Below, in pieces: positions 4,835 through 40,903 of a DNA stretch of 64,000 nucleotides (within the stretch, counting starts at the first letter, position 1; each line of letters begins with the position of its first letter). Position numbers and translations under genes: made by a program. The notes below the pieces were generated by a model. The model saw only the letters and a program-made list of their open reading frames with translations. It did not search any database and was not told the origin of the DNA. Origin of the DNA: a virus; IMG/VR virus record IMGVR_UViG_3300020183_000008, positions 64,001 through 128,000 of that record. The stretch is one strand, 5' to 3'.

Positions 4835-4879
4835 AAACTTCCCTCCCTGTTTTTTAACATGGGTCTGAAATTTAAATTG

Positions 4880-5486: not shown

Positions 5487-5497
5487 ATAGTATTATA

Positions 5498-6364
5498 TCA
5501 CTCTTCTTCAAAAATCCGAGTGAACAATTCAGCGACAGGTCCTCTTTCTACTTTCAACAAATGAATGTGACCAGTGATGGGTGATTTTTTGAAGAAATCG
5601 TTTTCAATCACCCGTAATAAACCAGGCTGAAATCCTTTGGTTTTCACATCAACCTGATTGTAGTCACCTGTGATAATCAAACGGCAACCTTCACCAACAC
5701 GCGTACCGAGAGTTTTCATAACGTGATCATCGATATTTTGAGCTTCATCAAGATAAACGATAGTGCGTTCACCAAAACTCACACCTCTCATGAGTTCGAG
5801 AGGCATAAATTCGATAACGCCTTTGGATTGCATGATCTCAAAATAACTTTTTCCTTTTTCTCCAGTCAATTTGTCAAAAAGATATTTGAAATTGATCAAG
5901 AAAGGTGAAAATTTTTGGTTTTCATCCCCAGGAACAGTGCCAAAATATTTTGAATTACCTACGATTTCCATCGGTTTTGATATAACAACCTTATCGACGT
6001 AGCCACCTGTAATAAGCTCTGTCAAATAAGCACCGATAATCAAGGATTTACCTGTACCTGCTTTCCCTGTTACAGTGACAACTTGAATACCTTCATCATT
6101 TAACAGATCAAACAACATGACCTGTTCTTTATTTTTAGGTCTGATGTCGAAAAAATTGGGATTTTGGTCTCTTAAAATTACGATACGGGAATTATCCGTT
6201 GAAACCTTAGCGAGGGCAGATGAATGAGAATCCGATTTTATAACTAAATATTGGTTTGGAAAAAATCCTTCTTTATCTTTTAAATCTACAAAACCATCCT
6301 GATACAATTTATCTAATTCAGGGAAATTCTCGACTACTCTAACTCCAGTATAGCGTTGACGCAT
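5498..6364 (-). CDS. phoH: PhoH-family ATPase
   Basis: GKAGTGKS, MRGVSF, DEAQN, TRVGEG, GDYNQVD motifs. Confidence 0.92.
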   Translation of the reverse strand: MRQRYTGVRVVENFPELDKLYQDGFVDLKDKEGFFPNQYLVIKSDSHSSALAKVSTDNSRIVILRDQNPNFFDIRPKNKEQVMLFDLLNDEGIQVVTVTGKAGTGKSLIIGAYLTELITGGYVDKVVISKPMEIVGNSKYFGTVPGDENQKFSPFLINFKYLFDKLTGEKGKSYFEIMQSKGVIEFMPLELMRGVSFGERTIVYLDEAQNIDDHVMKTLGTRVGEGCRLIITGDYNQVDVKTKGFQPGLLRVIENDFFKKSPITGHIHLLKVERGPVAELFTRIFEEE

Positions 6365-6420
6365 TTAATCCCTTCCTGACCGAAGATTGTTGATAGCTTC
6401 GATCTTCCAAGAAGAGCTTT

Positions 6421-7563: not shown

Positions 7564-7623
7564 CCTTGTCCCTCGCTAAAACCTCGACCTTGAGGTTTGA
7601 TTTTGATGCCCTACTAAATTTTG

Positions 7624-10299
7624 CTATAGTTTGTAGTGTCTTGCAAGTATGTCAAAACGGATAGCATCAAGTTTTTTTCTAACGAGAGGTACACCATCAG
7701 GCTTGAGGATTACAGCCTCATTGTTTCCACCGGCAGATTCCTCTAAAATCATATTCAATAAAATAAGGTCTCGTTTAGTGATGACACGATTCAAAGTGTA
7801 CGAATAGGGTTTCCAACTCAAAGGAATCTTGGACAACTCGGAGAGCAGTTCCTCGGAATTTAGACTTTGAATCCCTTTTTCCGTGTAAACTTTAGGAGGA
7901 GAAAGTTTTAAATAAGTTTCTATAGCTTGTTTAATTGCATCTTCGCCACTGATACCGCTTTCAGATGCTATTTTAAAAACATCGTAAGCCTTGGAAACAC
8001 TAGCTTGCTCCGTGGTTACAAGCGGTGCAATATCATCAACTGAAACTTCAGAGATGGGGTCATCTTCAACGGGTTCAAATTTTTCAGTTTCGATGATTTT
8101 CGTATCTTCTTTTACCGATTCACTCTTTTGTTCATCTGATTTTGTCAGATTTTCAGGGTCTAACCCAAACTGACGCGCTTTCATTTTGCGCAAACTTGTA
8201 TTTAATTTTGAAAGAAGATGCGGATTTTTTTCAAAAAACTCATAGTCAACATCCCAAGAGTCACCCACCTCACAGTCCATAGACAGCGGAACTTGCCACT
8301 TCAGAGTCGATTGAAGAACTCCGGAAAGGGACATGATGTTCATCAAATTTGGAAGATGCACATCTAGTTTACTTTCAAGAACTTCAAAGACTACTTCATC
8401 GTGTACCGTGAGCAAAAGGCGGACTTCATCGTTCACCTGATCGGCATACTCTTGAGTCTTAATCATGGCGAGTTTCATAATATCACCACCCGATCCTTGA
8501 ATCGGAGTGTTCGTCGCTAATCTCTCTGCTTTAGCGATTTCAATTCTATTGTCTAGATCCTTGAAAAATCTCTCTACAGACCTGCGTCGACCAAAAGGGG
8601 TTTCACAATATTTATTCTTCTTAACTTCCTTTTTTACCTTGTCGATCCACTTTTGCAGGTTTTTTAACCCACCCATCATTTTTTGTTGGTATTCGCGTGC
8701 TTGATCACGCGAACACCCAACGGCACCTGCAATCGCTGAAGGTCCCCCGCCGTACAAGGTCTGGAAATTCAGGGATTTACTGATATCTCTTTGTTCAGGT
8801 TCAACTTTTTTGGTATTAAAAACCAGAGATGCTGTTTCAGTGTGAAGGTCTCCATCACCTTCATTGAATGATTTAATCCACACAGGTTCTTGGGATACGT
8901 TCGCAGCCACGCGCAATTCTTCACCTGAATAGTCTATCGCAACCATTTTATAACCAGATCGAGCTACGAAACATGACCTCAAAAAATAACCAGAACCATA
9001 GATGTCCATGATTTGTTCATCAGTCATCCCTTTAATTTTCTTTTTCTTGGCGGGTTTCGTCATCGCCTGAATATTAACACCAGCGAAACCCACATCAGGA
9101 TCTCCACCAGAACAAGAAAATCTACCTGTTTCTGTACCTAGCTGTCTAAAATCAAATTTCGTACAACTGTCTTTATCAACATTTTTGATCAAGTTATCAA
9201 CGTAGGTTCCAAGTGTTTTAACGATATCCCGTTGTTTTAAAATCAACGGAATTAAAGGACACCTGTCTTTAAACTTTGATAATGTTTTTTCGTCCGTGTG
9301 GATGGTCTCTCTACCATCTTCATCCACACCTTGCAGAGGAAGATGGTAATCTTCGATCAATATTTTTGCTACAGCTTTAGGGGAACTTAAATTTATAGGC
9401 TCACCAACTAAATCATTAGCCTCGGTTTCAACCTTTAAAAGAGCGTTAGCGAGAAAAGACCTTTTTTCCTGTAACAGCTCTGTGTTGACGGAAACTCTAT
9501 TCTTAGCCATCTCACGCACAACACGGATAGTTCTGCGCTCCATCCAATAAATAACCGGCTGTTCTTGCTCGATGTATTTCAATCTCTCAAACACATGCCA
9601 TGTGCACACGGCATCTGAACAGCCATAGTAAAGAGTATCTTTTTTATTGGGATCGAGAAGATAAAACTTGACCTCTGAACCGTGAAATAGGTCACGAATT
9701 TCTATCATCTCCATTCCAAGAAGATTCTTAGAAAGATCTTTTAAGCCGTGACCATGACTCGATGCATCCTTCAACTTCGAAAGAATAAAAGTATCGTGCC
9801 AAGGAATAGTTGGAGCATCAATTTTCTGACCAGTAGGAAAGGCTAAAGGTGATTTAGTTTCACCTATCTGGCGAATATTGAAACCCCAATTTTCAAGAAT
9901 CGCATGGTCGTACCCGCAGTTATGATAAATCGTAACACAGCTATCAAGTATTTCTTGAATTCGGATTTTTACATCATCAAAATTTAAATTCCACGTATCG
10001 GAACGGATGAATTCACCTTCATCTTCCATGCCGTGGTTTACGGGCACATAATAACCTGCAACTCCATCGTAGGACAAACAAAACCCTGCGATGAAAGTCT
10101 GAGGTTTGCCATCGATGACTCGAACATCTAAACCAGATGTTTCCAAGTCGATGACACAACAGCCTGATTTTTTGCTACCCTCAACAATTTCATCAAGTAC
10201 AGAGATATCCTTGACACACAAGAATTTCTTAGTGCGCATCCAAGGATACTTTTCCTCAAGAGGGCGATCCATCGTTTCCGAATCAAATAGTGAGTTCAT
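7624..10299 (-). CDS. polA: Family A DNA polymerase with 3'-5' exonuclease and a C-terminal extension
   Basis: ExoI DLETSG, ExoII HNCGYD, ExoIII YGCSDA; TETGRFS; motif A DYSGEELR, motif B KSLNFQTLYG, motif C VHDEV; no 5'-3' exonuclease domain. Confidence 0.95.
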   Translation of the reverse strand: MNSLFDSETMDRPLEEKYPWMRTKKFLCVKDISVLDEIVEGSKKSGCCVIDLETSGLDVRVIDGKPQTFIAGFCLSYDGVAGYYVPVNHGMEDEGEFIRSDTWNLNFDDVKIRIQEILDSCVTIYHNCGYDHAILENWGFNIRQIGETKSPLAFPTGQKIDAPTIPWHDTFILSKLKDASSHGHGLKDLSKNLLGMEMIEIRDLFHGSEVKFYLLDPNKKDTLYYGCSDAVCTWHVFERLKYIEQEQPVIYWMERRTIRVVREMAKNRVSVNTELLQEKRSFLANALLKVETEANDLVGEPINLSSPKAVAKILIEDYHLPLQGVDEDGRETIHTDEKTLSKFKDRCPLIPLILKQRDIVKTLGTYVDNLIKNVDKDSCTKFDFRQLGTETGRFSCSGGDPDVGFAGVNIQAMTKPAKKKKIKGMTDEQIMDIYGSGYFLRSCFVARSGYKMVAIDYSGEELRVAANVSQEPVWIKSFNEGDGDLHTETASLVFNTKKVEPEQRDISKSLNFQTLYGGGPSAIAGAVGCSRDQAREYQQKMMGGLKNLQKWIDKVKKEVKKNKYCETPFGRRRSVERFFKDLDNRIEIAKAERLATNTPIQGSGGDIMKLAMIKTQEYADQVNDEVRLLLTVHDEVVFEVLESKLDVHLPNLMNIMSLSGVLQSTLKWQVPLSMDCEVGDSWDVDYEFFEKNPHLLSKLNTSLRKMKARQFGLDPENLTKSDEQKSESVKEDTKIIETEKFEPVEDDPISEVSVDDIAPLVTTEQASVSKAYDVFKIASESGISGEDAIKQAIETYLKLSPPKVYTEKGIQSLNSEELLSELSKIPLSWKPYSYTLNRVITKRDLILLNMILEESAGGNNEAVILKPDGVPLVRKKLDAIRFDILARHYKL

Positions 10300-10330
10300 C
10301 CAAACAAGATAAATTCAAAAGTTGGAAAAA

Positions 10331-11014
10331 TCAAAGCGTTTCAAAACAACAAACCAAATCCGATTTTGTTTGATTTATGAGCATCGAGTGTTCAGACAGT
10401 CCTTGGTGAGCTACCCAAGTTGGGTTATCCCCTACGAGGTGCTTAATGTGAAAAGAAACAGCGAATTTCTTTCGAGCCTTAAATATCGGGTTAGGTATCT
10501 TGAAAGAATACCAACCATCAAGAAACTCGGAAAGATGGATATCGTACGTTCTCAGTAACTTACCACCAAAGTCGACATCAAAAATCGTCAAGGTAGCTAA
10601 ACCAGCACCACCTTTTTTCACGCGCATTCGCCATTCTGAAAAGGTATCTTGCTCATGCTTGAAAAGTATTGTAAACTTATGATTTTCTTGCATTTTAACA
10701 TCGGAAAAACCAACTGACTGGAAAGCTCCGAGAGATGATGACCTATGCAAAGAGTGCAGTATTTCAGCCGCTCTACCGTGACTATCATCCACCCATTCAA
10801 ATAACTTTGAATATTTTGCAGACAAAATAGTTATCTTATCAACCGTAGTTTTCGCGAATAAATTTTTTTGACCTACAAGCAGAACCTTGTCGTATCGATA
10901 GGCATCAATAGCAGAAGGATTTATGAATTTCTCGACTTGTATTCGAGAAGAGAGTTGCTTCTCAATCTCGCTCTCTTGGTCATACGGATAAATGACTGCA
11001 ACGAGTTTATTCAT
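10331..11014 (-). CDS. Hypothetical protein in the glycosylation cluster
   Basis: 227 aa, overlaps the upstream gene; beta-rich C-terminal half. Confidence 0.55.
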   Translation of the reverse strand: MNKLVAVIYPYDQESEIEKQLSSRIQVEKFINPSAIDAYRYDKVLLVGQKNLFAKTTVDKITILSAKYSKLFEWVDDSHGRAAEILHSLHRSSSLGAFQSVGFSDVKMQENHKFTILFKHEQDTFSEWRMRVKKGGAGLATLTIFDVDFGGKLLRTYDIHLSEFLDGWYSFKIPNPIFKARKKFAVSFHIKHLVGDNPTWVAHQGLSEHSMLINQTKSDLVCCFETL

Positions 11015-11699
11015 AAAGGGCTTTCAACCAAATATGTAAATTATTGTAATGAAGACGCTGAGATAAACAACGCAGCCTAGATCTTTCTAAGTCCCCAGAG
11101 ATGTCCATACCCATCCTCAAGATGTCTAAGCGGGTCAAAGCATCTGAAATCGTGGAAAAGGGTAACATCCAAGGACTGAGGCAATGTAAAGATCTAAGGA
11201 TTTCAGCGACACCATCGAAATCATGTACGAGAAAAGGCTGTTTTCTGATGATTGCATTTAAGAGTTGTTTTTTGCCAACATAGCCCGACTCCAGAATAAT
11301 ATGAATGCCTTGAGAGGGTGCTCGAATTTGCTCGACCGGAATCGATGGGTGAATAGCTTGTCTAACTTCGAGATAGGTCTCATCAAATACAGATAACATA
11401 CCTATTTCATTGAATAAACTTTCCCACCTTCGAATCAATCGAGATGGGGCTTCACAGATTGCGCGATCTAATCTGTAATTCTCTTCAGCCTTTTGATAGT
11501 CAACCGTGATTGGGTAGCTAAAACCAACTAATTTCTCTTTCTCAGGTTCAAATTCTATGTGTTTAACCCCTTTGATTTCAAAACCAACGGTCGCATCGTA
11601 GGGGACGAAAGGCTGTCTAAACTCAGCATCAACATCATGTAAACTGTTGAGAAAAGACAAAAAACTCTTATTGAAATGTGGAGCAACCCCGAGTTTCAT
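11007..11699 (-). CDS. Hypothetical protein, possibly a degenerate glycosyltransferase
   Basis: Start chosen at 11699 (GGAGG RBS, ATGA overlap); only weak GT-B-like features. Confidence 0.45.
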   Translation of the reverse strand: MKLGVAPHFNKSFLSFLNSLHDVDAEFRQPFVPYDATVGFEIKGVKHIEFEPEKEKLVGFSYPITVDYQKAEENYRLDRAICEAPSRLIRRWESLFNEIGMLSVFDETYLEVRQAIHPSIPVEQIRAPSQGIHIILESGYVGKKQLLNAIIRKQPFLVHDFDGVAEILRSLHCLSPWMLPFSTISDALTRLDILRMGMDISGDLERSRLRCLSQRLHYNNLHIWLKALYE

Positions 11700-12700
11700 A
11701 GAATCGACCTCCATTTTTTTACAAAAGTTGAGAAAGGTCTTTTTTCCTCTACAGATCTTCTAGCTCTTTTCCCTAATCTTATTGAAACTTCTGGGTTTTT
11801 TATAAGAAACAAGAGATAATTTCGCACTTCCAAAAGATTCAGGGCACTGTAACCGGTGATTCCGTGAAGAATAAGGTCGCTATTCCAGATTCCATTCCCA
11901 ACAACAGGCACACCGCAACTCATCGATGTCAGAGTTGACAGTGATGTAGGGTAACCATCCTGCAAATCTAAACAAGCGTTGTATTGAGAAATGGTATCTA
12001 GTCCAGAATACCAAAAATGGTAGGCTGTCTTGTTTTCATCAGCTTGAATGTTCGGAAGAACACTTCGAAACTGATTTAATGAATCTTGCCCGTAGAGGTC
12101 TACAGGTAGATCCAAAGAAACTAAAGCGGAATAATGATAGCCACTCCCATGTGGATCAGATGGAGGTGCAGGGTGAATAATCAGAGATCTGTTTATTTTA
12201 TTTACGCTGAAAGGGAAATTTACTAATTCAAAAGAAGGCTCAATGACTACAGAATTTTCAAATCCCCACGCCTTTTGGCATGAGACCGATGGGACAACCA
12301 CTAAGCGATCACCGATGATCGTTTTTATGTTGGTAAATAGTTCATCGTCGAGCGGTAAGTCTTTTTGAAAAAAACTTTGCACGTTGAATCGGTCTTTCCG
12401 AGGGGGAGCACCGTGACAAACAAAAATGATTTTTTTAAATTTAGACTTAGCCAAATTTAAAAACTCAGCAGACATTTTGTCTTTAGCTTCACGGCTCAAA
12501 TGACCTAAGCCTAAACAATTATCATCAAAATGAAGAATGAGCGTTTCTTTACTCAATTCGCAGTCTTCGAAGTCTACGCTTCCTGCAAAATTATTAGGTC
12601 GCGCTTGATAGTCCCAATCTATCGATTTACAGAGAATCCAAAATTTGTCGATTTTATTTAATTCATATTGATATATCGGGTCGAATAGGTTTGTAAGCAT
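11696..12700 (-). CDS. GT-B (GT4-like) glycosyltransferase
   Basis: C-terminal LTSMSCGVPVVG...LILHGITGY...LGKRARRSVEE pattern of Glycos_transf_1-type domains. Confidence 0.75.
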   Translation of the reverse strand: MLTNLFDPIYQYELNKIDKFWILCKSIDWDYQARPNNFAGSVDFEDCELSKETLILHFDDNCLGLGHLSREAKDKMSAEFLNLAKSKFKKIIFVCHGAPPRKDRFNVQSFFQKDLPLDDELFTNIKTIIGDRLVVVPSVSCQKAWGFENSVVIEPSFELVNFPFSVNKINRSLIIHPAPPSDPHGSGYHYSALVSLDLPVDLYGQDSLNQFRSVLPNIQADENKTAYHFWYSGLDTISQYNACLDLQDGYPTSLSTLTSMSCGVPVVGNGIWNSDLILHGITGYSALNLLEVRNYLLFLIKNPEVSIRLGKRARRSVEEKRPFSTFVKKWRSIL

Positions 12701-12703
12701 GAT

Positions 12704-13531
12704 TTATTTTAGATATTCGTGCAGATGATCTTGCCAAGGATACAATCTCACACCATTTTGGATACTTTTATCGACATTCAGGACGCTGTTCTTAGGTCTC
12801 TTCGCAGGACGCACGAAGTCTTCTGATGAACAAGGCACCACTTTAACAGGATGATTTTTTAAAATATCTTTAGCAAAGTCGTACCAAGAGCAAAAATTAC
12901 TTGAAGCCACGTGCCATTTCCCTTCGGCACCTTGATCTAATAACCAAGAGACAGCTCGCGATACCATTTTCGTACTCGTAGGTCTTCCAAATTGGTCACT
13001 GACGACCTTAATCTCTTTATTATTCGCAGCAATATTTAACATCGTTTTAACAAAATTCGGACCATTGCGACCAAAAAGCCACTGTACTCGAATCAACAAA
13101 GATTTAGCTGAACAAGATTCAATAGCTGTTTCACCGAAAAGTTTACTTTTCCCGTAATTGTTAATCGGATTTCTTTCATCATCTTCTCGATAGAGTGATG
13201 TGGTATTTCCATCAAAAACATAATCTGTGGAAAAATGAACGATCTTTGAATTAACTTTTTCGCAGGCTGATGCGAGATGATAAACACCTAAACCATTAAC
13301 ATCATAACAAAGCGAGTTAATTTCACACTCATCAACTTTTGTAAAAGCGGCGCAATTCAAAACAATTTCAGGGCGAATGTTGAAAAGAGCGGATTCGACT
13401 TCTTTTTTATTTGTAATATCTAATTGTTTTTTTGAAAGGCTATAAGTTTGATATTTACCATTCAAAACAGGCAGCAAATCGAAAGCCAACATTCCATCTG
13501 CACCTGTGAGTAGTAGTTTAGGCTTACTCAT
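12704..13531 (-). CDS. rmlD: dTDP-4-dehydrorhamnose reductase
   Basis: TGADGMLA, NCAAFTKVDECE, STDYVFDG, YGKSK, DQFGRPT, AKRPKNSVL. Confidence 0.92.
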   Translation of the reverse strand: MSKPKLLLTGADGMLAFDLLPVLNGKYQTYSLSKKQLDITNKKEVESALFNIRPEIVLNCAAFTKVDECEINSLCYDVNGLGVYHLASACEKVNSKIVHFSTDYVFDGNTTSLYREDDERNPINNYGKSKLFGETAIESCSAKSLLIRVQWLFGRNGPNFVKTMLNIAANNKEIKVVSDQFGRPTSTKMVSRAVSWLLDQGAEGKWHVASSNFCSWYDFAKDILKNHPVKVVPCSSEDFVRPAKRPKNSVLNVDKSIQNGVRLYPWQDHLHEYLK

Positions 13532-14495
13532 TTCTGCCCCAAAAATTTTCGTAGGTTTTTTCTAACCAATTTCGATTATCTTTGTACCAATTCAAGGTTT
13601 TTGATAACGCTTCATCAAGATCTGTACGCGGTGCCCAACCCAATTTTTTTAATTTTGTGCAATCGACTGAATATCGAAAATCATGTCCTTTTCGGTCTTC
13701 GATAAAATTAAGATGCAAATACAAACCAGATAATCTCTGAACAGCGTGCAAAATATCTAAGTTGGATCTCTCGTTATCTGAGCCGATGTTATAGGTTTCG
13801 CCTATTTCACCTTTTTCAGACAATAAAATAATTGCATCAGCTAAATCTTCAACAAAAAGCCATTCGCGAACATTCAACCCATTTCCATAAACAGGGACAG
13901 GTTTGCTGTTCATCATCAAATAAAGTGCTCGGGGTAAAAGTTTTTCAGGGAGCTGCCTCGGACCAAAACAATTCGAAGGGCACACGTTAATTACAGGTAG
14001 CTTGTGCGTTTCCCTAAAAGCATTAGCGAACAATAATTGAGATGCTTTACTCGCTGAATACAAATTCCTAGGTGCGATCGGAGTAGTTTCTGTGAAACAC
14101 CCATCATGAGTTGGGAGATGCCCAAAAATCTCATCGGTAGCAAAGTTGATGACCTTAGGTACTTCGGTCTCCCTACAAGCCTCAAATAGATAAGATGAAC
14201 CTAAAACATTTGTTGTAATAAAATCTTCAAAATTAGATATGGATTTATCCACTGAAGACTCAGCCGCAATGTGTACGACTAATTCATAAGGACCGAAGTT
14301 TGAAAAAACGTGTTCAATGTTGTCTTTTCTTCTAAGGTCAGCCTTAAAAAATTTTACATCTAACCCAGAAATATGCTCTTTGAACCCGCTGTAAGATAGA
14401 GTATCAAAAACATGAACTTCATACCCTTGATCCAAAAATCTTCGCACCACGGTGGAACCAATAAATCCGCAACCACCTGTAATCAAAACTTTCAT
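13524..14495 (-). CDS. rmlB: dTDP-glucose 4,6-dehydratase
   Basis: TGGCGFIG, AAESSVDKSI, TDE, YSASK, PEKLLP, DRKGHDFRY. Confidence 0.93.
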   Translation of the reverse strand: MKVLITGGCGFIGSTVVRRFLDQGYEVHVFDTLSYSGFKEHISGLDVKFFKADLRRKDNIEHVFSNFGPYELVVHIAAESSVDKSISNFEDFITTNVLGSSYLFEACRETEVPKVINFATDEIFGHLPTHDGCFTETTPIAPRNLYSASKASQLLFANAFRETHKLPVINVCPSNCFGPRQLPEKLLPRALYLMMNSKPVPVYGNGLNVREWLFVEDLADAIILLSEKGEIGETYNIGSDNERSNLDILHAVQRLSGLYLHLNFIEDRKGHDFRYSVDCTKLKKLGWAPRTDLDEALSKTLNWYKDNRNWLEKTYENFWGRNE

Positions 14496-14849
14496 TCAAT
14501 CACCATCCCACACACCATCAGGTCTAATTTGAGCTAAAGCTAGCAAACCGTAAAGGGACTGTTTTGCATTACCTTCTGTCGGTTTCCAATAATCGACATC
14601 AGTATCATCTTTTAGTTGGGCTATAGCTTTTTTTATAACAGGCAAGCTCTCTGCCCCAGTCATCCCATAAATTGCTCTTATCCCTTTTTCTCCAAAAATT
14701 TTGTAAAAAAATGGCGCATAATTATAAGTGATGTTGAGATGAAGCCTGTCATTATTGATAGCATAGGCGCCACCTCTAATTTGATGAGGACTCTCTGAAT
14801 GTAAAACTTCTTTTGTCACAGGGTCTATGAGAGACAAGTCATAGCTCAT
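14496..14849 (-). CDS. Hypothetical phage protein
   Basis: 117 aa (NITYNY...DYWKPTEGNAK...PDGVWDGD); tightly packed between rmlA and rmlB. Confidence 0.65.
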   Translation of the reverse strand: MSYDLSLIDPVTKEVLHSESPHQIRGGAYAINNDRLHLNITYNYAPFFYKIFGEKGIRAIYGMTGAESLPVIKKAIAQLKDDTDVDYWKPTEGNAKQSLYGLLALAQIRPDGVWDGD

Positions 14850-14852
14850 AAA

Positions 14853-15722
14853 TTACCTTTGCCATTTTCTGAGAGTTTTTGAGTAGTAGCTCATTTCATG
14901 TAGAACCTGATCTTTGTTATTTCCGCTTTCTACACAATTTTGCCACTTCTCTATTGAACTAAGAGGAATTGAAAGACCATTATCGATAGAAAACAACTTC
15001 AATCGAGGTGGAGGGTTGTTTTTGATAAAATTAGCCGCTTCTAACAACGATTCTGGAGAACCCATGTCCGTCCAATACCCATGAACAGTTGTAGATTCGA
15101 GGCGACCTTGCTCAAGATAGGCTTGAATAATATCTGTTACTTCTAGCTCACCTCGACCTGAAGGCTTGATCTTCTCAATAATATCAAAAACATCAGAGTC
15201 AAAAATATAAGCACCGACGACTGCGAGATTTGACTCAGGTTGTTTTGGTTTTTCGATGACTTTTAAAACTTTTCCAGATTCGTCCACAGTCGCAACTCCG
15301 AACGCTTTTGGGTCATCCACAGGTTTTAAAAGAATCTTTCCACCACCTCGATAGGTAGAGACGAACTCTGCTAAAGAATCTTCAAAAAAGTTGTCGGCAA
15401 GAATAACGCAAACAGGACTATTACCAACGAAAGGTCGGGCACAGCGTAAAGCATCTGCGATACCACCCTCACGATGTTGATACCCGAAATTGACGCTGTT
15501 CAATCCAAATTCTTTACCATTACCAATATACTCAATGACTTTCCCTGAATTTCTTGATCCTACAACGGCAACGACATCTTTGATCCCAGCTTCAACTAAA
15601 TTAGATAGAGGATATTCAATCATGGCGCGATCAAAAACATAAATCATGTGTTTGTTTACAACACGGTGAGTGTAATACGACATTCGTGTACCTAATCCAC
15701 CTGCGAGAATAACACCTTTCAT
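14853..15722 (-). CDS. rmlA: Glucose-1-phosphate thymidylyltransferase
   Basis: MKGVILAGGLGTRM, LADN, EKPKQPESNLAV, SGRGELEVTD, WTDMG; start at 15722 (AGGGGG RBS, ATGA overlap). Confidence 0.92.
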   Translation of the reverse strand: MKGVILAGGLGTRMSYYTHRVVNKHMIYVFDRAMIEYPLSNLVEAGIKDVVAVVGSRNSGKVIEYIGNGKEFGLNSVNFGYQHREGGIADALRCARPFVGNSPVCVILADNFFEDSLAEFVSTYRGGGKILLKPVDDPKAFGVATVDESGKVLKVIEKPKQPESNLAVVGAYIFDSDVFDIIEKIKPSGRGELEVTDIIQAYLEQGRLESTTVHGYWTDMGSPESLLEAANFIKNNPPPRLKLFSIDNGLSIPLSSIEKWQNCVESGNNKDQVLHEMSYYSKTLRKWQR

Positions 15723-16861
15723 TTTTGACCCCCTAAAATTTCGGTATAAGTCTGTTCCCAAAGTTTGTAGTTTTTACTGATATCGTAATCAGCTTCAGCG
15801 GTTCTTCTACCGTTTTCAGAGATCATATTGTGAAGCAAAGGATCTCGAATTAAATCTTGGATATATTGATACCATTCAACGGCGATACCTCTCGAATCTT
15901 TTTCATCTGAAGCCAAAAATCCGTTCACACCATGAGTGATGGTTTTTGTATAGTTCTCAATATTGGATGCTACACAGGCAGCACCAAAGGAAAAAGACTC
16001 GATTACCTTCAAATTACTTTTTGCATAATTGAACGGCAAATTGACGATAGGGCAGACAGAAATCGTCGGTCCTAAACGGATAAGATATTGCAGACAGGCA
16101 TGAAAATAATGAACAGGTATAGGATCCAAAACATAAAGCTGATTTGGATAAGGCTTCATCATTTTGAGAAAGTCAGCGGTACAACAACCGACCTTAACGA
16201 AAGCCACATCAGGGTTTTTTTCAGCTAACTCGGCTAAAGTTTGATCGATAATCGCAAGGTCTTTACTATGCGTGGGAGACCCCCACCAAATCACTTTCGT
16301 TTTCCCTTTTAGTCGAGCGAACATGGATTCTTGTGAAAGCACCTGTTGATGAACAGAGCGTGAAATAGAATTAGGATCCTTGAAAACTAAGTATTGTAAC
16401 CAGCGATTATCAGGTTGCCTCATAGCTTCAAGAGCTTTTAAGTCCATCGAATTCGGCAAAACATAAATGTTCTTATTGATACCTAAATGAACTTTTCTCA
16501 AATAATCAGTAGAAACTGTACAAGCATCAACTAGACCAATAAAGTTTAAAATCTTTTGTTTTTTATCTTTATAAAAATCATGTGCTGCGTTCCATTCAGG
16601 GATTTCAGTCATAAGGTCATCGCACTCGAAAAAAACAGGCTTACCTAGAGATTGAGCGAGCTGAACATAAGGAACAACGGCATCTTGATATTGCTTCTGT
16701 ACAATAACCACATCAGCCCATCGGATTTCATCTTCATCGTAACGATGAGAAACCCTGACGAGGTGACCTGCTTTTGCTAGGTACTTAAATGGTAACTGGA
16801 TACGAAAAAGACCGCACCCATCGAATCCTGAAATATAAGCAAGAATTTTCATAATCACCAC
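15719..16861 (-). CDS. Glycosyltransferase (GT-B, phage type)
   Basis: GCGLFRIQLP, ECDDL, VSTDYL, LPNS, WWGSPTH, KSNLKVIE, HGVNGFL. Confidence 0.85.
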   Translation of the reverse strand: MVIMKILAYISGFDGCGLFRIQLPFKYLAKAGHLVRVSHRYDEDEIRWADVVIVQKQYQDAVVPYVQLAQSLGKPVFFECDDLMTEIPEWNAAHDFYKDKKQKILNFIGLVDACTVSTDYLRKVHLGINKNIYVLPNSMDLKALEAMRQPDNRWLQYLVFKDPNSISRSVHQQVLSQESMFARLKGKTKVIWWGSPTHSKDLAIIDQTLAELAEKNPDVAFVKVGCCTADFLKMMKPYPNQLYVLDPIPVHYFHACLQYLIRLGPTISVCPIVNLPFNYAKSNLKVIESFSFGAACVASNIENYTKTITHGVNGFLASDEKDSRGIAVEWYQYIQDLIRDPLLHNMISENGRRTAEADYDISKNYKLWEQTYTEILGGQK

Positions 16862-16887
16862 TATAACATGAGTTTTTCTGGATTCAA

Positions 16888-17547
16888 TCAGAACAGGACG
16901 CTTAACTTGTTGCCTCTTATATTTTCAACATAACCGCATCGGGAAATCAAAGTATAACGGGTCTTTTCGACCACCAAAGGACTTACTGAATGACAAAACG
17001 TAGGAACCACATTACAGATTGATACAAGCACTCCGTGTTCAGCTACAATCTCTTGCACTCTATCAATACTATCTTTGATTCCCCACCACGTTTTGTCTAG
17101 TTTCCACGAGCCACACAAAAGATTACCACCGTACTCAGAAATCCACTTTTCCGAAGTCAAAAATAAACAATTCGTGACGTGAAGACCCTCATGTACATCA
17201 TTGTGAAAGGGAAGGTGTACACCTTGTTTATGCTGGTGAAGTAGCGTGGTACGCTGCGAAAAGTCACCGTATAACAAACGCCAATAATCAAAATAAGGCT
17301 GTGAAAGTATTGAATCCCATATAGAAGTAATCTCAGATGGGGGTTTGTTATCCGATGTTTTTTTGCTGAAAGCACTGTCCCAGTCAGGTATTTGAGGATT
17401 AGACTTCTTAGTCTTCGACTCTTCTCTGAAATTTTGGCTTTCTGCAATTTTTAGAAATTCATCTGCAAAAGACTTTTTTAAACGGGTTGCAGTCCAACCT
17501 TTTGAAAAGAAATGGTCTGCATCAAATAATTCGTCTTGCAACATCAC
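16888..17547 (-). CDS. 2OG-Fe(II) oxygenase (prolyl-hydroxylase-like)
   Basis: HxD (FHND), W-x4-GG-x-L, distal His (HSVSP) and 2OG-binding Arg (RYT). Confidence 0.82.
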   Translation of the reverse strand: MMLQDELFDADHFFSKGWTATRLKKSFADEFLKIAESQNFREESKTKKSNPQIPDWDSAFSKKTSDNKPPSEITSIWDSILSQPYFDYWRLLYGDFSQRTTLLHQHKQGVHLPFHNDVHEGLHVTNCLFLTSEKWISEYGGNLLCGSWKLDKTWWGIKDSIDRVQEIVAEHGVLVSICNVVPTFCHSVSPLVVEKTRYTLISRCGYVENIRGNKLSVLF

Positions 17548-18055
17548 TTAAACCGATCTTAGACCGCAGCGTTTTTACCATATCCATGTTTTCAGTCTCT
17601 TCTGCTTTGTCCAGAACGTAAAAAGATTTCGCGTATTTCTCTAAGCCAAGGTCTTTCTTTTTTTCAATCAACTGCTTTTCAGTAATTCGCAAAAGATCAG
17701 CCAAAGATAAATCACGAATAGAAGGGGTTTGCTGCGGTCGAGATTCTCGGCTTACAGGAGAATCTTCGACACCATCCCACTTAACACCAAATTGTTTTTC
17801 TAACAGATAACAAGAATCTCTGAAATTTACTTTTTTGTATTCTGAATAAAAACCAATGATATCGTAGGCAACCCCGCAAGCAAAACATTTAAACAATTCG
17901 TTGCGGTAAATGCGAGCAGATGGTTTTGAATCTTGCCCGTGAAAAGGGCACCTCATTTGAAAATCACCATCCGCGCTCGATGGTAATAAATTCAATAAAG
18001 ATAAAACATCAGTCATGTGAACGTGATTTTTGATGTTCTTAACTCTATTTTTCAA
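17522..18055 (-). CDS. Stand-alone DnaG-type CHC2 zinc-finger protein
   Basis: CPFHGQDSKPS...FKCFACG; no TOPRIM domain. Confidence 0.85.
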   Translation of the reverse strand: MKNRVKNIKNHVHMTDVLSLLNLLPSSADGDFQMRCPFHGQDSKPSARIYRNELFKCFACGVAYDIIGFYSEYKKVNFRDSCYLLEKQFGVKWDGVEDSPVSRESRPQQTPSIRDLSLADLLRITEKQLIEKKKDLGLEKYAKSFYVLDKAEETENMDMVKTLRSKIGLSDVARRII

Positions 18056-18091
18056 GGATGTTATCCCTATTCTAAAGAATATTTAAAAACT

Positions 18092-19627
18092 TCAAAGAGA
18101 TATCTCTTGCACTCCGGATGACAGAGGTATCTCATCTCCTTGATCACGATACATAATCTGACGACAAGCGAGTTTTGTATCACTAATGAAAGGTGAAAAA
18201 ATCTCACCATGACGGTTTTTGATACAACCTATGTGAATCTGGTTATTCTGCCTTAAATCATGATTCAAATAGGTATACAAAACAGCATCAGCCGAGCGTT
18301 CAGCTTCATTGGCATAAGAAAGGTGATACGTTGAATAAATAGGTCTATCGGTTTGAGCAACATCAATCCGAGCAGAGTCCGATTCCGATTTTTTAACGGC
18401 TTCTTTTTTACCTTCGCGGTTGATCTGAAAAGGGCTTATGATCGCTATCCCTCTATTGTCATCGAAGGTTTGAGCCACTCTTTTTAGTTTTTTCATGATT
18501 GAGTTCAAGTTATGACTTTCACTCATACCAGGTTTCCAGTCATCAGCGAACATCAAGCCTGGGTAGTCGATAACCATCAAATCGATGGGATCTTTTCTAT
18601 GAATAGCCATAGCTTTGGATGCCAATAAATTGGGTGTACAGTCCTGATTCGGTTCCCAGATATGAAGTTTTCCGTACAAATTATCCGGATCACGTCCCGA
18701 TTCTAAGCCGCGAGAGGACCAATCGCGGAGAGCAAACTTGTAAAGAGCCTCTCTTTGACCCCAAAGCATAGCCGATTTAATTTGATCATAGACAACATCA
18801 ACCTTCTTTTCACAATTCGCCTGAAGCTCAGGATTGTTCGCATGTAGGCAATAAAAAATATCCTGTACGTTTTCTTTACTCATTTCCAGAGAAACAAACA
18901 TACAAGAATAACCAGATGTTACAGCGTGATAAACCCAATTCATAGCAAGGGTTGTTTTACATTCACCTACGGCACCAGCGATAACCACTAATTGTTTTCG
19001 GTGTATGCCTTTAAGAGCATTGTCGAGGGGGGATAGACCTGAAACAATCCCCCACTGAGCCATTTTATTTTTATTCGCTAACTCGTAGCGTTTAATAGCC
19101 GATTCGACGCCTTCAGTCATCTCAACGTGAGTTATCTCATCACTCTCTGTTTGAAAAAACTGATCTGTACTATGAAGCAAAAACTCGACTGCATCTTTGA
19201 CACCTTTACGGGTTTTTTGACCTTTAGGTGCAACGTATTTGTCGTTTGCAATCTCAACAGCTTCTTGAATAGTTTTATTGAATATTCTTTGATGACATTC
19301 TTTTTGAACAACATCATGTAAATATCGAAAACCAGCGCCAATCTGAGCAGAATATTCATGGATGAGATTTAATTCATCCATCAATTCAATCGAAGTGCTC
19401 CCGCGAGTTTCGAAAGCTAAATTTAGAATTGAGAACGTCGGTAAATCGTTATTCTCTTGAACATAGTCAATTACAAATTTTAAAATCTGACCGTAATCTG
19501 GATTCAATACTTCTAATTTGGGAGTTGGGTATTCCAGAAGTTTTACATGATTTTCACCAAGATCTTCACGGTCATCTTTTTTGATGAGGCAGCGCAAGTA
19601 TTTACGCGATGAATCACTGATGCTCAT
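18092..19627 (-). CDS. dnaB: DnaB-like replicative helicase
   Basis: SGLSPLD, Walker A GAVGECKT, SLEM, VIDY, QINR, ERSAD, KNRHG. Confidence 0.9.
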   Translation of the reverse strand: MSISDSSRKYLRCLIKKDDREDLGENHVKLLEYPTPKLEVLNPDYGQILKFVIDYVQENNDLPTFSILNLAFETRGSTSIELMDELNLIHEYSAQIGAGFRYLHDVVQKECHQRIFNKTIQEAVEIANDKYVAPKGQKTRKGVKDAVEFLLHSTDQFFQTESDEITHVEMTEGVESAIKRYELANKNKMAQWGIVSGLSPLDNALKGIHRKQLVVIAGAVGECKTTLAMNWVYHAVTSGYSCMFVSLEMSKENVQDIFYCLHANNPELQANCEKKVDVVYDQIKSAMLWGQREALYKFALRDWSSRGLESGRDPDNLYGKLHIWEPNQDCTPNLLASKAMAIHRKDPIDLMVIDYPGLMFADDWKPGMSESHNLNSIMKKLKRVAQTFDDNRGIAIISPFQINREGKKEAVKKSESDSARIDVAQTDRPIYSTYHLSYANEAERSADAVLYTYLNHDLRQNNQIHIGCIKNRHGEIFSPFISDTKLACRQIMYRDQGDEIPLSSGVQEISL

Positions 19628-20472
19628 GTTCGCGCTCCACTTCTCAACTGCTTACCACCCACCTGTTTCGCATTTCGAGCAGGTTTCTGCTTATCTAGAT
19701 TAGGTTCATCTTGTTTGTCTTCCGCAGGAACAATACAAGATACATCGCCAATCGTGATAGTTACAAAATTATCACTACCTATTTCTTTTATATTTTTGTC
19801 CCCGACGTTTGGATTTGTAACCCATCGAGTTGGATTCCAAAACCAAATGGGCAGCGATTTAGATTTTCTATGTAAAATCAATTCTTCGACGTGGGATTCA
19901 TCGGCTATGTTCGAATAGCCTTTTTTAGACAAGTCAAAAACAAGAAGATGCTTATCATCGAACATTCCAAAATCAGAACGACCGCTTTTTTCATCGAATT
20001 TTTTAGACCTCAACATGAGAACATCAATAAATTGTATGTTAAATTTTCGGACTTTGTTCTTAAAAACCAAAAACTCAGTAAACGCCTGTAAATGCGACAG
20101 AAACAACGCGTATTCTGCCACAATAAAAGCATTCTTTATTTTCCCTTTTTTCAAATGACCAAATTCATAAACTGAAAATAGTTTAGAAAGTTCAGTTTCA
20201 TCAGGTCTCTGAAAAATACAGGAGTTCATTTCAATCGTGAAATACTTTCTCAGATAGTATTCACGCTCTTCTTGGCAAGGTTGGTATTTCCCTTCGTAAG
20301 GATTACCGGAAACGTAGTCAAAATGCTCATACCTGTGTTTACCGCAATGTGGGCACAAAGACTGAGGTGATATAAGACTTTTCTCATCAGGAACGAAATC
20401 CGGATTGCTCTTGCGCTTTTCCGCAATCGCTCTCTCTTCATCTTTGGGTGTCCAAACGAAACCACGTTTCAT
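19624..20472 (-). CDS. Degenerate DnaC/DnaI-like helicase loader
   Basis: N-terminal CPHC...PC; LLVFDL; ELILHRKSKSLPIWF; overlaps the dnaB start; no intact Walker A. Confidence 0.5.
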   Translation of the reverse strand: MKRGFVWTPKDEERAIAEKRKSNPDFVPDEKSLISPQSLCPHCGKHRYEHFDYVSGNPYEGKYQPCQEEREYYLRKYFTIEMNSCIFQRPDETELSKLFSVYEFGHLKKGKIKNAFIVAEYALFLSHLQAFTEFLVFKNKVRKFNIQFIDVLMLRSKKFDEKSGRSDFGMFDDKHLLVFDLSKKGYSNIADESHVEELILHRKSKSLPIWFWNPTRWVTNPNVGDKNIKEIGSDNFVTITIGDVSCIVPAEDKQDEPNLDKQKPARNAKQVGGKQLRSGART

Positions 20473-23188: not shown

Positions 23189-23519
23189 GTCGAGGATCCT
23201 TACGGATTCGATCTTGCACAGTAAGAAGAGTTTGATGAAGTTCGGGGTAATGAACCCGAACTTTTTCCATATAGGGATCCTGATGCTGCGATTGAATTTC
23301 ACCTAACTTATTTTTTAAATCCTGAATTTCAGAATCAAGATCGCTCTGAACTTTCACTTTAGATGCTGTAGCTTTCTTGAGCCGCTTCTGATGATGTTTT
23401 ATATTTTCCAGAATTTGATAAAATTCGTGGTAAGAATCATGAACTTTGATGATGAAACTTTGAATGTTAGCAATACTCAATCGAAGAGGGCTTGAAATTA
23501 GCTCACAGCAAGCTAACAT
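23157..23519 (-). CDS. Hypothetical coiled-coil protein
   Basis: 120-aa ORF; start uncertain. Confidence 0.5.
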   Translation of the reverse strand: MLACCELISSPLRLSIANIQSFIIKVHDSYHEFYQILENIKHHQKRLKKATASKVKVQSDLDSEIQDLKNKLGEIQSQHQDPYMEKVRVHYPELHQTLLTVQDRIRKDPRLKALFPTELL

Positions 23520-24483
23520 TCATAATTCTCCTAACAATAGACCTTGCAATCTTTGCCCTGAAAACTCTTCTCAAATCATCAGAATCTAATTCAAGATTCA
23601 AAACGATTCTTCTAAGTTCAGCGGTATATTTTTCCAAAAACTTTTTGGCAGCGTAACTTTCAAGTTTTAAATTTGTTTTTAAATTTTCCATGATTTCCGA
23701 TGATGAATCGGACTCTTTAATTATGTCAAATACTTTAACATAACGAGGATCTTCATTTTCTAGTTTTTCTAAAATTTGATTTTTCAAAAACTTATCATCA
23801 ACGGTAACATCATCAACAACATCTTGAATATGATGAGAATCACTTACGGTAGAACTTTGCTCATCACCTTTATCAAAGTTTCCGAATGACTTTGCATGGT
23901 CGATAAACTTATCTTTGTTTTCTTTGATAAAATTCTTTGCTTTATTTACAACAGAAGTTGTCCAGAAACTAATAAATTCAGGTTCATCTTTACCTTTAAA
24001 TTTATTAAAGATATTTGGACGAGGTTTATCACTAAGCATCTTGTCCAAATCGATGTCTTTTTTCATAGTTTTGAAAGGTTTTTTCTCACCTGTGAAACAC
24101 ATCTCGATGAATTTTGAATCAAAATCAAAATGATCTAAAATTTTTAGGATATTTTTATCTTGTTGAATTTTATCTAATGAAAAACCCTTAGATTTCATCT
24201 GAAGAACAATATTAGGAATCAGAGTCTCAGCAAGATATTTTCGATGATAATTTTCTAAAGGCTTGCCCGGTGATTTAACAATAAGTTGTTGAATCACACC
24301 TAGAACAAGGTCATCGATTGTCATACCACCTTTAAGGTTGGACAAATCAAATTTTTTCCTGATGGCACCAATCGCTAACTTGTATAGATCCGTAGAATCA
24401 GAAATCGGCAGCCCTAAACTTTGAGCTTCATTTTTCAAAGTTTCCGCGATTTTTTCCGCTTGAATTATGGCTGTCTTTTTCAT
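23503..24483 (-). CDS. Possible second, divergent sigma-like factor
   Basis: Region 2-like FNKFKGKDEPEFISFWTTSVVNKAKNFIK; region 4-like LKNQILEKL...RYVKVFDIIKESDSSSEIME. Confidence 0.4.
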   Translation of the reverse strand: MKKTAIIQAEKIAETLKNEAQSLGLPISDSTDLYKLAIGAIRKKFDLSNLKGGMTIDDLVLGVIQQLIVKSPGKPLENYHRKYLAETLIPNIVLQMKSKGFSLDKIQQDKNILKILDHFDFDSKFIEMCFTGEKKPFKTMKKDIDLDKMLSDKPRPNIFNKFKGKDEPEFISFWTTSVVNKAKNFIKENKDKFIDHAKSFGNFDKGDEQSSTVSDSHHIQDVVDDVTVDDKFLKNQILEKLENEDPRYVKVFDIIKESDSSSEIMENLKTNLKLESYAAKKFLEKYTAELRRIVLNLELDSDDLRRVFRAKIARSIVRRIMNVSLL

Positions 24484-31517: not shown

Positions 31518-31796
31518 TTAGCAGAACACAGCTCCCGAATACCTTCCGTTCGATATATAAAGCGTAACTCCATAAAGGGTGAAATCCATTTTTTGCACAC
31601 ACTCAGGGCAAAGAAAAGCATCGAAATGCTCGAAGTCCCCAACGATGCCTTCACCGATAGGATCTCCATCTTTATAGACGTTCCCAACAACACCTAACCC
31701 CAAAGTATGTACTTCCACATCACCTTGGTAGGAGCATCTTGAGCACGACCATCCCTTACACACAAATACACTTGTTTTTATCTTCGGAAGTTCCAT
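31518..31796 (-). CDS. Small zinc-ribbon protein
   Basis: CSRC and CPEC pairs. Confidence 0.6.
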   Translation of the reverse strand: MELPKIKTSVFVCKGWSCSRCSYQGDVEVHTLGLGVVGNVYKDGDPIGEGIVGDFEHFDAFLCPECVQKMDFTLYGVTLYISNGRYSGAVFC

Positions 31797-32020
31797 CCTA
31801 AGATGATAGCAAATTTAATACAAACACAATTCTCATTTCAAAAACATCCACAAAGATGTCTGAAATAAATTTATGCTCATAAGAAACTACTCACTCTGGT
31901 CGCTCATATCAGAGAATTTCGACTCACCTCGTATCCCTTTTGGAGCTTGGCATCGAGTCTACAGTTAAGAGGGTTTTCTAGCTTCAGGAGCTCAAGCATC
32001 CTGTCCTAACTGTTTGTTTT

Positions 32021-32077
32021 TACTGTTTCTTATAGATGTTTTTCTTCTTTTCCTATTTCAGTTTTTTGTCTTTGTTT
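32021..32077 (+). repeat. Partial (57-bp) third copy of the 94-bp block
   Basis: TACTGTTTCTTATAGATGTTTTTCTTCTTTTCCTATTTCAGTTTTTTGTCTTTGTTT; 2 mismatches to the copies at 33002 and 33176. Confidence 0.9.
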
Positions 32078-32444
32078 TTTTTCGAACTTTCGGGGCTTCA
32101 CTTTTCATCGTGTCCGTCCAACCACGAGGCTTTCACCTCGATTCTCCGAGCATCTCGACGAGCTTTCATTTCTAAAAGCGGGGCGAGTGTCTTCTCTGGT
32201 CCATCCGTTTCACAGGTAACTTCTTGGGTCGTCGACCCTTGTCGCTACGAGCTACCCACCGCAGACACCCAACTTAAACTATCGTTCGGTGACGCTACAG
32301 GAGATGATGTTATCGGCTGTGCCCTGACCTAGTTCAGATGATGCTGTAAAGATTGCACAGGGATGAAATAGTTCACCCCTTCGAACCAACAGCCTATGCT
32401 CCCACAAGACTGACCTACATGAAGACCATTACTTCAGAAAGTGA

Positions 32445-32793
32445 TGGTAGTGAACATCACCCATTTCCATAAACCTTTTGCCCTTAACTTCTCAGGTAAA
32501 CAGTAGCGGAATTCAATCCATTCCCATAAACCTAGATACGCTTCTATGAAGACCATCAATCAAGAAGGTAACAGTAGCGGAATTCAACCCATTCCCATAA
32601 ACCTTTCCCACCAACTTCTCCAAGATAAACAGTAGCGGAATTCAATCCATTCCCATAAACCCTAGATACGCTCCTACGAAGACCATTAAAGACAAGAAGG
32701 TAACAGTAGCGGAATTCAATCCATTCCCATGAACCTTTGACTTAACTTCTCTGAAGGATTGCAGTAGCGGAATTCAATCCATTCCCACAAACC
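32445..32793. repeat. Array of 32-bp direct repeats with alternating A/B spacers
   Basis: CAGTAGCGGAATTCAATCCATTCCCATAAACC at 32501, 32572, 32630, 32704, 32762 (0-1 mismatch each) plus a degenerate copy at 32445; spacers of 25, 39, 26, 42, 26 bp. Confidence 0.93.
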
Positions 32794-32903
32794 TTAGATA
32801 CGCTTCTGCAAGTGTTACTTGCTTACAGAATGAACTCTGTCTTTCGGTAAACTAACTATCAAGAATAGATACCTGTTCACACATTGTTCATCTGAACGAT
32901 TAC

Positions 32904-32933
32904 ATAATAGACAGACAATTTCGGCGGAGTCAA
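32904..32933 (-). promoter_or_regulatory. Leftward sigma70-like promoter containing the TCCGCCGAA motif, pointing into the repeat array
   Basis: Minus strand TTGACT-N18-TATTAT (TTGACTCCGCCGAAATTGTCTGTCTATTAT). Confidence 0.5.
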
Positions 32934-33001
32934 TAACTCATCTAAGATTTTCAAAATAAATATACTTGACTACTTTTGATGCATTTAATCGAGGGCAGTC
33001 T

Positions 33002-33269
33002 TACTGTTTCTTATAGATGTTTTTCTTCTCTTCCTATTACAGTTTTTTGTCTTTGTTTCAAAGAAACAAAGTAAGAGGGTAAGATCTATATCTATTTATA
33101 TTTATATTTATAATGATCTAAAATATAGCATTTTATGTTTGATTACTTTTATAGCACTATGACATGATAGATACCTACTGTTTCTTATAGATGTTTTTCT
33201 TCTCTTCCTATTACAGTTTTTTGTCTTTGTTTCAAAGAAACAAAGTAAGAGGGTAAGATCTATATCTAT
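33002..33269 (+). repeat. Two identical 94-bp direct repeats (33002-33095, 33176-33269) flanking an AT-rich tract
   Basis: Each has a pyrimidine-rich half, a 9-bp inverted repeat CTTTGTTTC-AAA-GAAACAAAG and a purine-rich half. Confidence 0.93.
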
Positions 33270-33314
33270 AAATATTGAGTAAAGGATAGTTCATAGGAGA
33301 AGAGAAGAGGATAG

Positions 33315-33362
33315 GGATACCTCATAGGATACCTCATAGGATACCTCATAGGATACCTCATA
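33315..33362 (+). repeat. Tandem repeat (GGATACCTCATA)x4
   Basis: Four perfect 12-bp units, flanked on both sides by GAAGAGAAGAG. Confidence 0.95.
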
Positions 33363-40156: not shown

Positions 40157-40903
40157 ATGAAAAGTGCTGAGAACTACATAGAGATTCTGAGAAGGTATAA
40201 CAGCTCTTACTACACTTCGAGAGAACCTGAAGTATCAGATCAAGAGTACAATGCTATCAAAAATGAATTTAGACAGCACTACCCAGACCACCCTTTTCTT
40301 CGCGGGGTAGGGGTCACATCAACCCAAACCGAGGCATCAACTTCGGTTTCTGCAAATCACTCCATCGCGATGGTTTCTCTGAAATCTATTTCAGAAGAGG
40401 GTGAGTTTCGCTCTTGGGCGAACGATGTATCTAACGATGGGATTTTCTGTGTGTCGGAGAAAATCATAGGTCAGTCATTCAGTGTTTCTTATTTACAAGG
40501 GAAATTCTACCAAGCTATTACTAAAGGTGATGGTAAAACGGGTATCGATATTTCTAAAGATTTGCGACAAAAATTGCCATTTGGTTTGCCTGTATCGATA
40601 TCAGTAGTCCTTCAAGGGGTCACTTCACCCCAAGGTCTTTATTTTTTTGATTTGCTTGGAAGTATGGTGTTTCATGTGGAACATCAAAAATTTGATTACA
40701 TAAAAAACATTTTGAAACTACAGACTCCGTTTTACAAGAAAGCAGCGTTAGAGGAAGTTGTTTCTATTTATAAGAGCTACAAAAAAAACAGACCCTCATT
40801 CTTGGATGGAATCATCATCACAGTCGATTCAAAGATACAGCAAGAAATGTTAGGTATTGATAAAGATCCACCCGATTATAAAGTGAATTTTAAACTTAGC
40901 TAA
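40157..40903 (+). CDS. Truncated NAD-dependent DNA ligase-like protein (domain Ia plus adenylation domain only)
   Basis: YYTSREPEVSDQEY, MVSL, EKIIG, TKGDGKTG, DGIII; ends at motif V with no OB/Zn/HhH/BRCT domains. Confidence 0.8.
   Translation: MKSAENYIEILRRYNSSYYTSREPEVSDQEYNAIKNEFRQHYPDHPFLRGVGVTSTQTEASTSVSANHSIAMVSLKSISEEGEFRSWANDVSNDGIFCVSEKIIGQSFSVSYLQGKFYQAITKGDGKTGIDISKDLRQKLPFGLPVSISVVLQGVTSPQGLYFFDLLGSMVFHVEHQKFDYIKNILKLQTPFYKKAALEEVVSIYKSYKKNRPSFLDGIIITVDSKIQQEMLGIDKDPPDYKVNFKLS

Follow-up and report, generated by a model that had tools for sequence, protein, structure and literature searches.

A CRISPR-like phage array as a very probable expansion within a large predicted RNA that matches an upstream DNA site

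The window, a stretch of 64,000 nucleotides, is part of a 155-kb virus record (G000) that is about 35% complete. Since the genomes of its relatives reach 345-484 kb, the source is regarded as a jumbo phage. The array described here is located in a 1.6-kb gap without genes between a leftward and a rightward gene arm. The leftward arm comprises two large unknown proteins, a sigma-like protein and a helicase and primase region, the rightward arm a DksA-like protein, a Pol III delta-like protein and ribonucleotide reductase. The intergenic region of 2,014 nt is identical base for base in three other assemblies, and an assembly artefact is therefore an unlikely origin of the array. A 326-aa protein with sigma-70-like features (window 23503-24483, minus strand) is conserved in all relatives and also in the satellite-like island described below, where its homologue gives a weak Sigma70_r2 match. 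The NAD ligase gene (window 40157-40903) encodes an adenylation domain only (248 aa), compared to full ligases of 620-630 aa in the relatives. Outside the window, at G000 1-19780, an open frame of more than 6,500 aa with short repeated units runs off the contig start on the minus strand.

The locus was compared with five phages that share the syntenic gap (L002, L003, L004, L008 and L038), with a bacterial contig (L006, extended by L058/L059) and with L012, a locus in the distant complete phage G001 (356 kb), in which L012 4780-5290 corresponds to G001 249116-249530. The distant loci L013 and L061-L063 are not syntenic and the module is absent from them; in L062, from an unrelated 199-kb phage, a small reverse-transcriptase-like ORF (4513-5364, YADD motif, 283 aa) adjoins an SSB-like gene. 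Protein-seeded scans with single queries found nothing, a scan of GTDB with the core motif gave two chance matches only (L014, L015), a scan of IMG/VR with the motif of the 3' domain gave 13 chance matches only, and the phage and plasmid records contained no match to the element.

The array comprises five 32-bp repeats, which start at 32501, 32572, 32630, 32704 and 32762 and show 0, 1, 0, 1 and 1 mismatches to the consensus, and a degenerate sixth copy near 32443-32474. The spacers measure 39, 26, 42 and 26 nt, with a further 26 nt before the first repeat, and the two types A and B alternate strictly. These re-measured values agree with an earlier sequence-only reading, which had described five near-perfect repeats, one degenerate copy and strictly alternating spacers. 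Its statement that no reading frame stays open across the array holds for either strand, even with one stop codon read through. The reported repeat ends and stems turned out to be less uniform: the terminal ATAAACC is present in three of the five repeats and missing from the other two, and the stem GGAAT-N7-ATTCC is found in the full repeats and lost in the degenerate copy. The repeat is absent elsewhere in the 155-kb contig and in every related locus, and had no match in Rfam and none in an exact search of IMG/VR (26-mer). A coding repeat under an alternative code (129/132-nt units) was rejected, with mixed stops in all six frames.

As noted in that reading, a sigma70-type promoter of the form TTGACT-18-TATTAT is directed into the array (32904..32933, minus strand), with a predicted start near 32897. 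Taken alone the promoter is within chance (3 found compared to 4.9 expected); a counterpart with 8-10 of 12 consensus matches lies in the same place in 8/8 related loci, among them L002, L003, L004, L008, L038, L059 and L012. From this start, a large structured non-coding RNA is predicted on the minus strand (31915..32897; alignments A3/A4, RNAalifold), the ends of which are placed by the promoter and by conservation. Its predicted length is about 980 nt in the window compared to about 450-620 nt in the relatives. The 5' domain is closed by a perfect 10-bp helix between 32888..32897 and 32332..32341, which is present at the equivalent position in the relatives with other letters. The conserved core (32085..32330) shows a multibranch fold with GNRA loops and invariant blocks, and a conserved 3' domain of two hairpins lies at 31915..32010, being absent in L038 and L012. 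For the aligned RNA, RNAalifold yielded 90 pairs, 26 of them with two-sided changes, a covariation that comes from only 6-8 related sequences and is therefore not free of shared descent. The consensus fold energy is -55.3 kcal/mol on the minus strand compared to -43.5 kcal/mol on the plus strand, and the covarying hairpins are capped by GNRA tetraloops on the minus strand. Rfam contained no match to the RNA, as cmscan to E 10 gave two chance matches only.

In L002, L003, L004, L006, L008 and L038 the promoter, the closing helix and the covarying core are kept and the array is absent; on either flank of the array, long invariant blocks are common to the window and the relatives. The closest relative, L038, has a 5' domain of about 130 nt, of which about 40 nt are replaced in this phage only by an expansion of about 480 nt (32345..32824, minus strand) that holds the whole array. 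The insertion respects the enclosing helices. Judged from these alignments, the array is very probably a 5' subdomain that was expanded in tandem and is optional in a large, so far uncatalogued phage RNA, which would run leftward from the conserved promoter. Of the repeat ncRNA that had been suggested before, the RNA and its minus-strand direction are retained, while the array would not stand alone but belong, as an optional domain, to a conserved RNA of larger size.

Some further observations concern the surroundings of the RNA. In L038 (3930-4150) and L001 (1-190) the conserved 3' domain is replaced by a different 3' sequence common to both, and therefore the 3' end of the RNA looks modular. 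Short repeated words are found 3' of the RNA end in L007 (20-160) and L002 (9500-9580), with four more in the island. In a distant relative, the contig ENA ERZ28653421, a 198-aa gene is located at the position of the RNA and may encode a protein replacing it. Directly 3' of the RNA in the window, a 92-aa protein (31518-31796, minus strand) contains two CxxC pairs, has no family match and is also conserved in L012 and L016; it is a possible partner of the RNA.

The RNA contains a purine-rich segment, predicted to be single-stranded (32020..32077, minus strand), which agrees in 56/58 letters with a DNA site located upstream of the promoter (33001..33058), the putative target of the RNA. A matched pair of this kind occurs in 7/7 complete cases (the window, L002, L004, L008, L038, L059 and L012), with a length of 53-59 nt in L002, L004, L008, L038 and L059 and with 75/75 identical positions in L012/G001; L003 ends with its contig after 23 matching bases of the pair, and L016 ends before the module. 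The segment is 91-100% identical to the site of its own genome, and between genomes segments and sites are mostly 52-74% identical, apart from two close pairs with 90-93%. In these comparisons, segment and upstream site change together from genome to genome. The matched pair is the sole dispersed direct repeat of at least 45 nt with copies 200-1500 nt apart in the complete 356-kb genome of G001, and in this contig the same search returned it as the sole example besides one at the contig end. As part of the RNA, the segment consists of 63-79% purines and is predicted to be 65-82% unpaired, compared to about 41% for the rest of the RNA. A mismatch at position 29-30 of the pair is found in 5/5 cases with the 3' domain and in 0/2 cases without it, the latter pairs being perfect.

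At its end, the upstream copy carries a DNA hairpin of 9 bp with a 3-nt loop (33051..33071), followed by an AT-rich stretch that is a candidate unwinding element (33078..33130). Both are found in 7/7 complete cases, the hairpin with 5-9 bp and the stretch with 69-89% AT. A 174-bp duplication, present in this phage only, adds a second copy of the target, the hairpin and the start of the AT-rich stretch (33176..33276). Further on, 12-bp tandem repeats with a GGATA core (33315..33362) are candidate iterons; GGATA repeats with 15-bp and 11-bp units occur in the same place in L038 and L058/L059, and none were seen in L002, L004 and L008. The upstream site is located at the strand switch of the genes, and the cumulative GC-skew minimum falls in the site or within about 15 nt of it in both long genomes, G001 and this contig (contig-wide minimum at 33039). 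Since the skew at fourfold-degenerate sites is weak, the minimum may mark only the switch in gene direction and is no proof of an origin.

The same module was found in an island integrated at tRNA-Glu in the bacterial contig (L058 1-12600 / L059 147-12604 / L006 1-4270; the left end lies beyond the sequence). For the neighbouring gene of the island, the nearest atlas cluster belongs to Bdellovibrionota (score 0.87), which is a lead only. Among the genes of the island are those for a serine recombinase, a resolvase and, with 25-30% identity, a homologue of the sigma-like protein of the phage. The 12.6 kb covered contain no recognisable member of a Rep, capsid or defence family; the left end, which could hold a Rep gene, lies outside. 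The full module is present, with the island's own matched pair (53/58), hairpin, AT-rich stretch and GGATA repeats, and between promoter and target lie 28-bp tandem repeats, the copy number of which varies between assemblies. From its gene content and module, the island is probably a satellite of these jumbo phages. That the island carries both the RNA and the target suggests that the module acts in cis, on the DNA of the element in which it lies. To the right of the target, the island has no gene that would lie downstream of it, which weakens the reading in which the target belongs to an mRNA leader. Altogether, the comparison of the genomes presents the array as a secondary, single-lineage expansion, and the RNA-plus-target module around it as the new element.

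We tentatively propose, at somewhat less than an even chance, that the module acts as an RNA-dependent replication origin, at which the RNA would return to the upstream site and form an R-loop with it. R-loop origins are known from phage T4. Where the DNA is left underwound after passage of the polymerase, the purine-rich segment would invade the upstream duplex and pair with the pyrimidine-rich plus strand of the upstream copy, while the displaced strand would extrude the adjacent hairpin. The AT-rich stretch would then melt, so that helicase and primase could load or the processed end of the RNA could prime. The matched pair would give each replicon, phage or satellite, its own specificity, and the folded RNA body would recruit proteins. 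The array would correspond to one docking hairpin multiplied six times and would be dispensable for the core function. Two observations speak against this explanation. RNase H (PF00075) was found neither in this contig nor in the complete relative G001. In L012 the promoter, the perfect 75-nt pair, the hairpin and the AT-rich DNA are present, but the fold before the segment is an unrelated one of no more than about 110 nt; this could be a minimal version of the module. Taken as a whole, the combination of an expanded RNA domain, a matched pair and an RNA-opened origin appears as the best explanation, with about equal chances of being right or wrong.

Another explanation for the match would be a pairing of RNA with RNA. 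A rightward transcript from about 33000 containing the complement of the segment could pair with the large RNA, in the manner of RNA I and RNA II of ColE1 or MRB plasmids, or the large RNA could silence the leader of the rightward replication operon. Such antisense control would agree with a TGACT-N12-TAnnnT word, which the window, L038 and L003 share immediately to the left of the upstream copy, and RNase III could be blunted by the mismatch that accompanies the 3' domain at position 29-30 in 5/5 cases. However, this word is absent in the island and L008, no sigma70-type rightward promoter was found at the upstream copy, there is no terminator, and the island has no rightward gene to be controlled downstream. 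Furthermore, known antisense RNAs come from the same DNA, for which a second copy is unneeded. We therefore regard antisense control as unlikely.

The site could also be recognised by a phage protein guided by the RNA, for nicking, recombination-dependent replication, concatemer resolution or the start of packaging, and a satellite would copy the module in order to be processed or packaged. While the co-varying pair, the hairpin, the capture by the satellite and the resolvase gene adjoining the site in the island are in line with this, no dedicated adjacent enzyme is conserved, and searches of this contig and of the complete relative gave no match to a reverse transcriptase, Cas1 or RAMP family. 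A search for IscB was without match, as were its controls. A guided DNA transaction of this kind is thus considered quite unlikely.

In the folding of the minus strand of the array, spacer B lies opposite spacer A around the intervening repeat. Three such arms are predicted: arm 1 (32662..32761) is a long hairpin of spacer B, the repeat 32704-32735 and spacer A; arm 2 (32533..32629) contains spacer B, the repeat 32572-32603 and spacer A; and arm 3 (32410..32500), composed of spacer B, the degenerate repeat and an A-like segment, is the weakest and alone not the MFE structure. The remaining repeat copies (32501..32532, 32630-32661 and 32762-32793, minus strand) would form linker hairpins. Unprompted, RNAalifold returned the order B-repeat-A for the three arms with 29 pairs and -10.2 kcal/mol, compared to 11 pairs and -4.2 kcal/mol for the plus strand. 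The repeat itself folds into two 4-bp stems with a 3x3 internal loop between them and a 6-nt loop. These 8 pairs are kept in 6/6 copies, in the degenerate one through five pair-preserving changes and in the last one through an A-U to G-C double change. Among the tip pairs, 8/8 substitutions in 8 pairs preserve pairing (p of about 0.06 for transitions only, 7e-5 otherwise).

The energies of the array folds are no better than those of shuffles (z -0.4 to +0.8), most of the energies of the B-A duplexes do not reach significance, and the MFE structure of the whole RNA does not contain the array arms. Because of the match with shuffles and the different full-length MFE, the B-repeat-A fold is supported, not proven. 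In this predicted structure, each 130-nt unit probably consists of a short linker hairpin and a long arm, in which B is paired with A around a second copy of the hairpin. Spacers B and A are thus probably the two strands of one long hairpin, three times over, and the alternation of the spacers would result from the pairing of B with A around the repeat. The modelled fold accounts for the strict alternation, which the CRISPR, sponge and iteron readings do not.

The array could also represent DNA iterons, as the sequence-only reading had considered, or a minisatellite that is close to neutral and that the RNA tolerates in a variable loop. It is found in one lineage only, the folding statistics are weak, and tandem repeats arise readily around the module (28-bp units in the island, 12-15-bp units with GGATA). 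The neighbourhood is indeed origin-like. On the other hand, linker and tip repeats are 31-32/32 identical despite differing flanks, the array was inserted with respect to the enclosing helices, and the substitutions in the repeats keep RNA pairs, including the double change, which favours an RNA role over iterons. Both possibilities are therefore improbable.

The proposals of a CsrA/RsmA sponge and of a repeat-mimic RNA anti-CRISPR, here as additions to the RNA, did not stand up to the comparison and are very improbable. The array comprises 13 GGA in 430 nt, five of them as ANGGA, which resembles CsrB/RsmZ, and shows CRISPR-like spacing. However, GGA is not enriched, with 3.0 per 100 nt compared to 0.7-4.2 in the array-free domain of the relatives, and is not looped, since the GGA of AUGGAU is base-paired in the supported fold. 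A CsrA family member is encoded neither in this contig nor in the complete relative, and Rfam gave no CsrB/Rsm or CRISPR-repeat match. In contrast to RNA anti-CRISPRs (Racr), the handle-like word lies on the plus strand, which is not the one predicted to be transcribed, and is lost in 2/5 copies, while promoter and structure are on the minus strand. Finally, a true or orphan CRISPR array, which is resembled in the look of 32-bp repeats and 26-42-bp gaps and had already been judged not to be a working one, is largely refuted, as the spacers are paralogous (A1/A2 identical at 35/39), are complementary to each other and have no match in phage records, the own contig or related genomes including G001, and as the Cas1 and RAMP families, to which the search was confined, were found neither in G000 (35% complete) nor in G001.

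Among known systems, we infer by analogy that the module would work most like the RNA-based replicons, i.e. ColE1 with RNA II/RNA I and the marine RNA-based (MRB) plasmids (PMC3035462). The shared features would be a non-coding origin transcript of about 500 nt (predicted here), the lack of a Rep gene in the module and a sequence-specific pairing that could set replicon specificity. Where these plasmids have their origin transcript in a Rep-free region, the RNA region described here appears ORF-free behind a conserved promoter. The differences are found in the pairing: in these plasmids the transcript hybridises to the DNA that served as its template, and the antisense RNA is made from that DNA as well, while the RNA described here contains a further copy, encoded separately, of a site that lies upstream of its promoter. 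Over the RNA, the plus strand showed neither a promoter nor a terminator for a counterpart of RNA I, and neither Rfam nor the plasmid records gave a match that would indicate homology.

The plasmid RNA motifs ARRPOF, GEBRO and PAGEV are likewise structured non-coding elements tied to replication regions; in the parts of the source consulted, they are described with 223-349 nt and without a co-varying internal copy of an upstream site (PMC5737381). The structure of ARRPOF is reviewed in PMC12990946. GOLLD and ROOL (PMC5737381, PMC12286853) are alike in size, multibranch fold, phage association and variable expansion domains. In contrast to them, the RNA described here is not located in tRNA clusters and carries a target-matching segment, and the covariance models of GOLLD, ROOL and ARRPOF gave no match (cmscan to E 10). 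Circularly permuted group II RNAs are also large and ORF-free, with a variable internal linker between conserved domains (PMC8637638). Inspection of alignment A3 revealed no D5 (AGC triad, 2-nt bulge, GNRA) and no GUGYG/AY splice sites, and the group II covariance model was without match. Group I, hammerhead, HDV-like, tmRNA, RNase P and HEARO were rejected by eye, since core elements or model matches were missing.

Diversity-generating retroelements combine a TR/VR repeat pair with a reverse transcriptase. In them, as in the module, one copy of a repeat lies in a structured RNA and the other, matching copy adjoins a DNA hairpin. Here, however, the complete relative lacks a reverse transcriptase, the target is non-coding, and the mismatches (T/C, T/A, A/T, G/C and G/T) are few, fixed in position and not adenine-specific. 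By the comparisons above, the architecture, as read from the genomes, belongs to none of the known systems, a statement that concerns the architecture, the mechanism being conditional as set out above. The combination of an RNA with a matched upstream DNA site was without description in the literature searched, a coverage in which subscription papers are mostly not included.

It is rather doubtful whether the module goes so far as to form a new class of RNA-guided origin. In such a class, an exchangeable guide of 53-75 nt would open a separate site upstream of its own promoter without Cas, RT or Rep, satellites would hijack the helper by means of their own guide-target pair, and the array would be a multivalent protein-docking expansion. 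To our knowledge, the start of replication is a largely open question for jumbo phages that possess machinery of the DnaB/Pol III type but lack an obvious initiator. The locus also cautions that a phage array of CRISPR-like appearance may, where its spacers alternate, be an expansion of hairpins. If the origin model is true, DNA would be opened naturally by means of a long guide and without Cas, and satellites would have a new way to parasitise their helpers. Should the model fail, the locus would still represent a new family of large RNAs that have their target built in.
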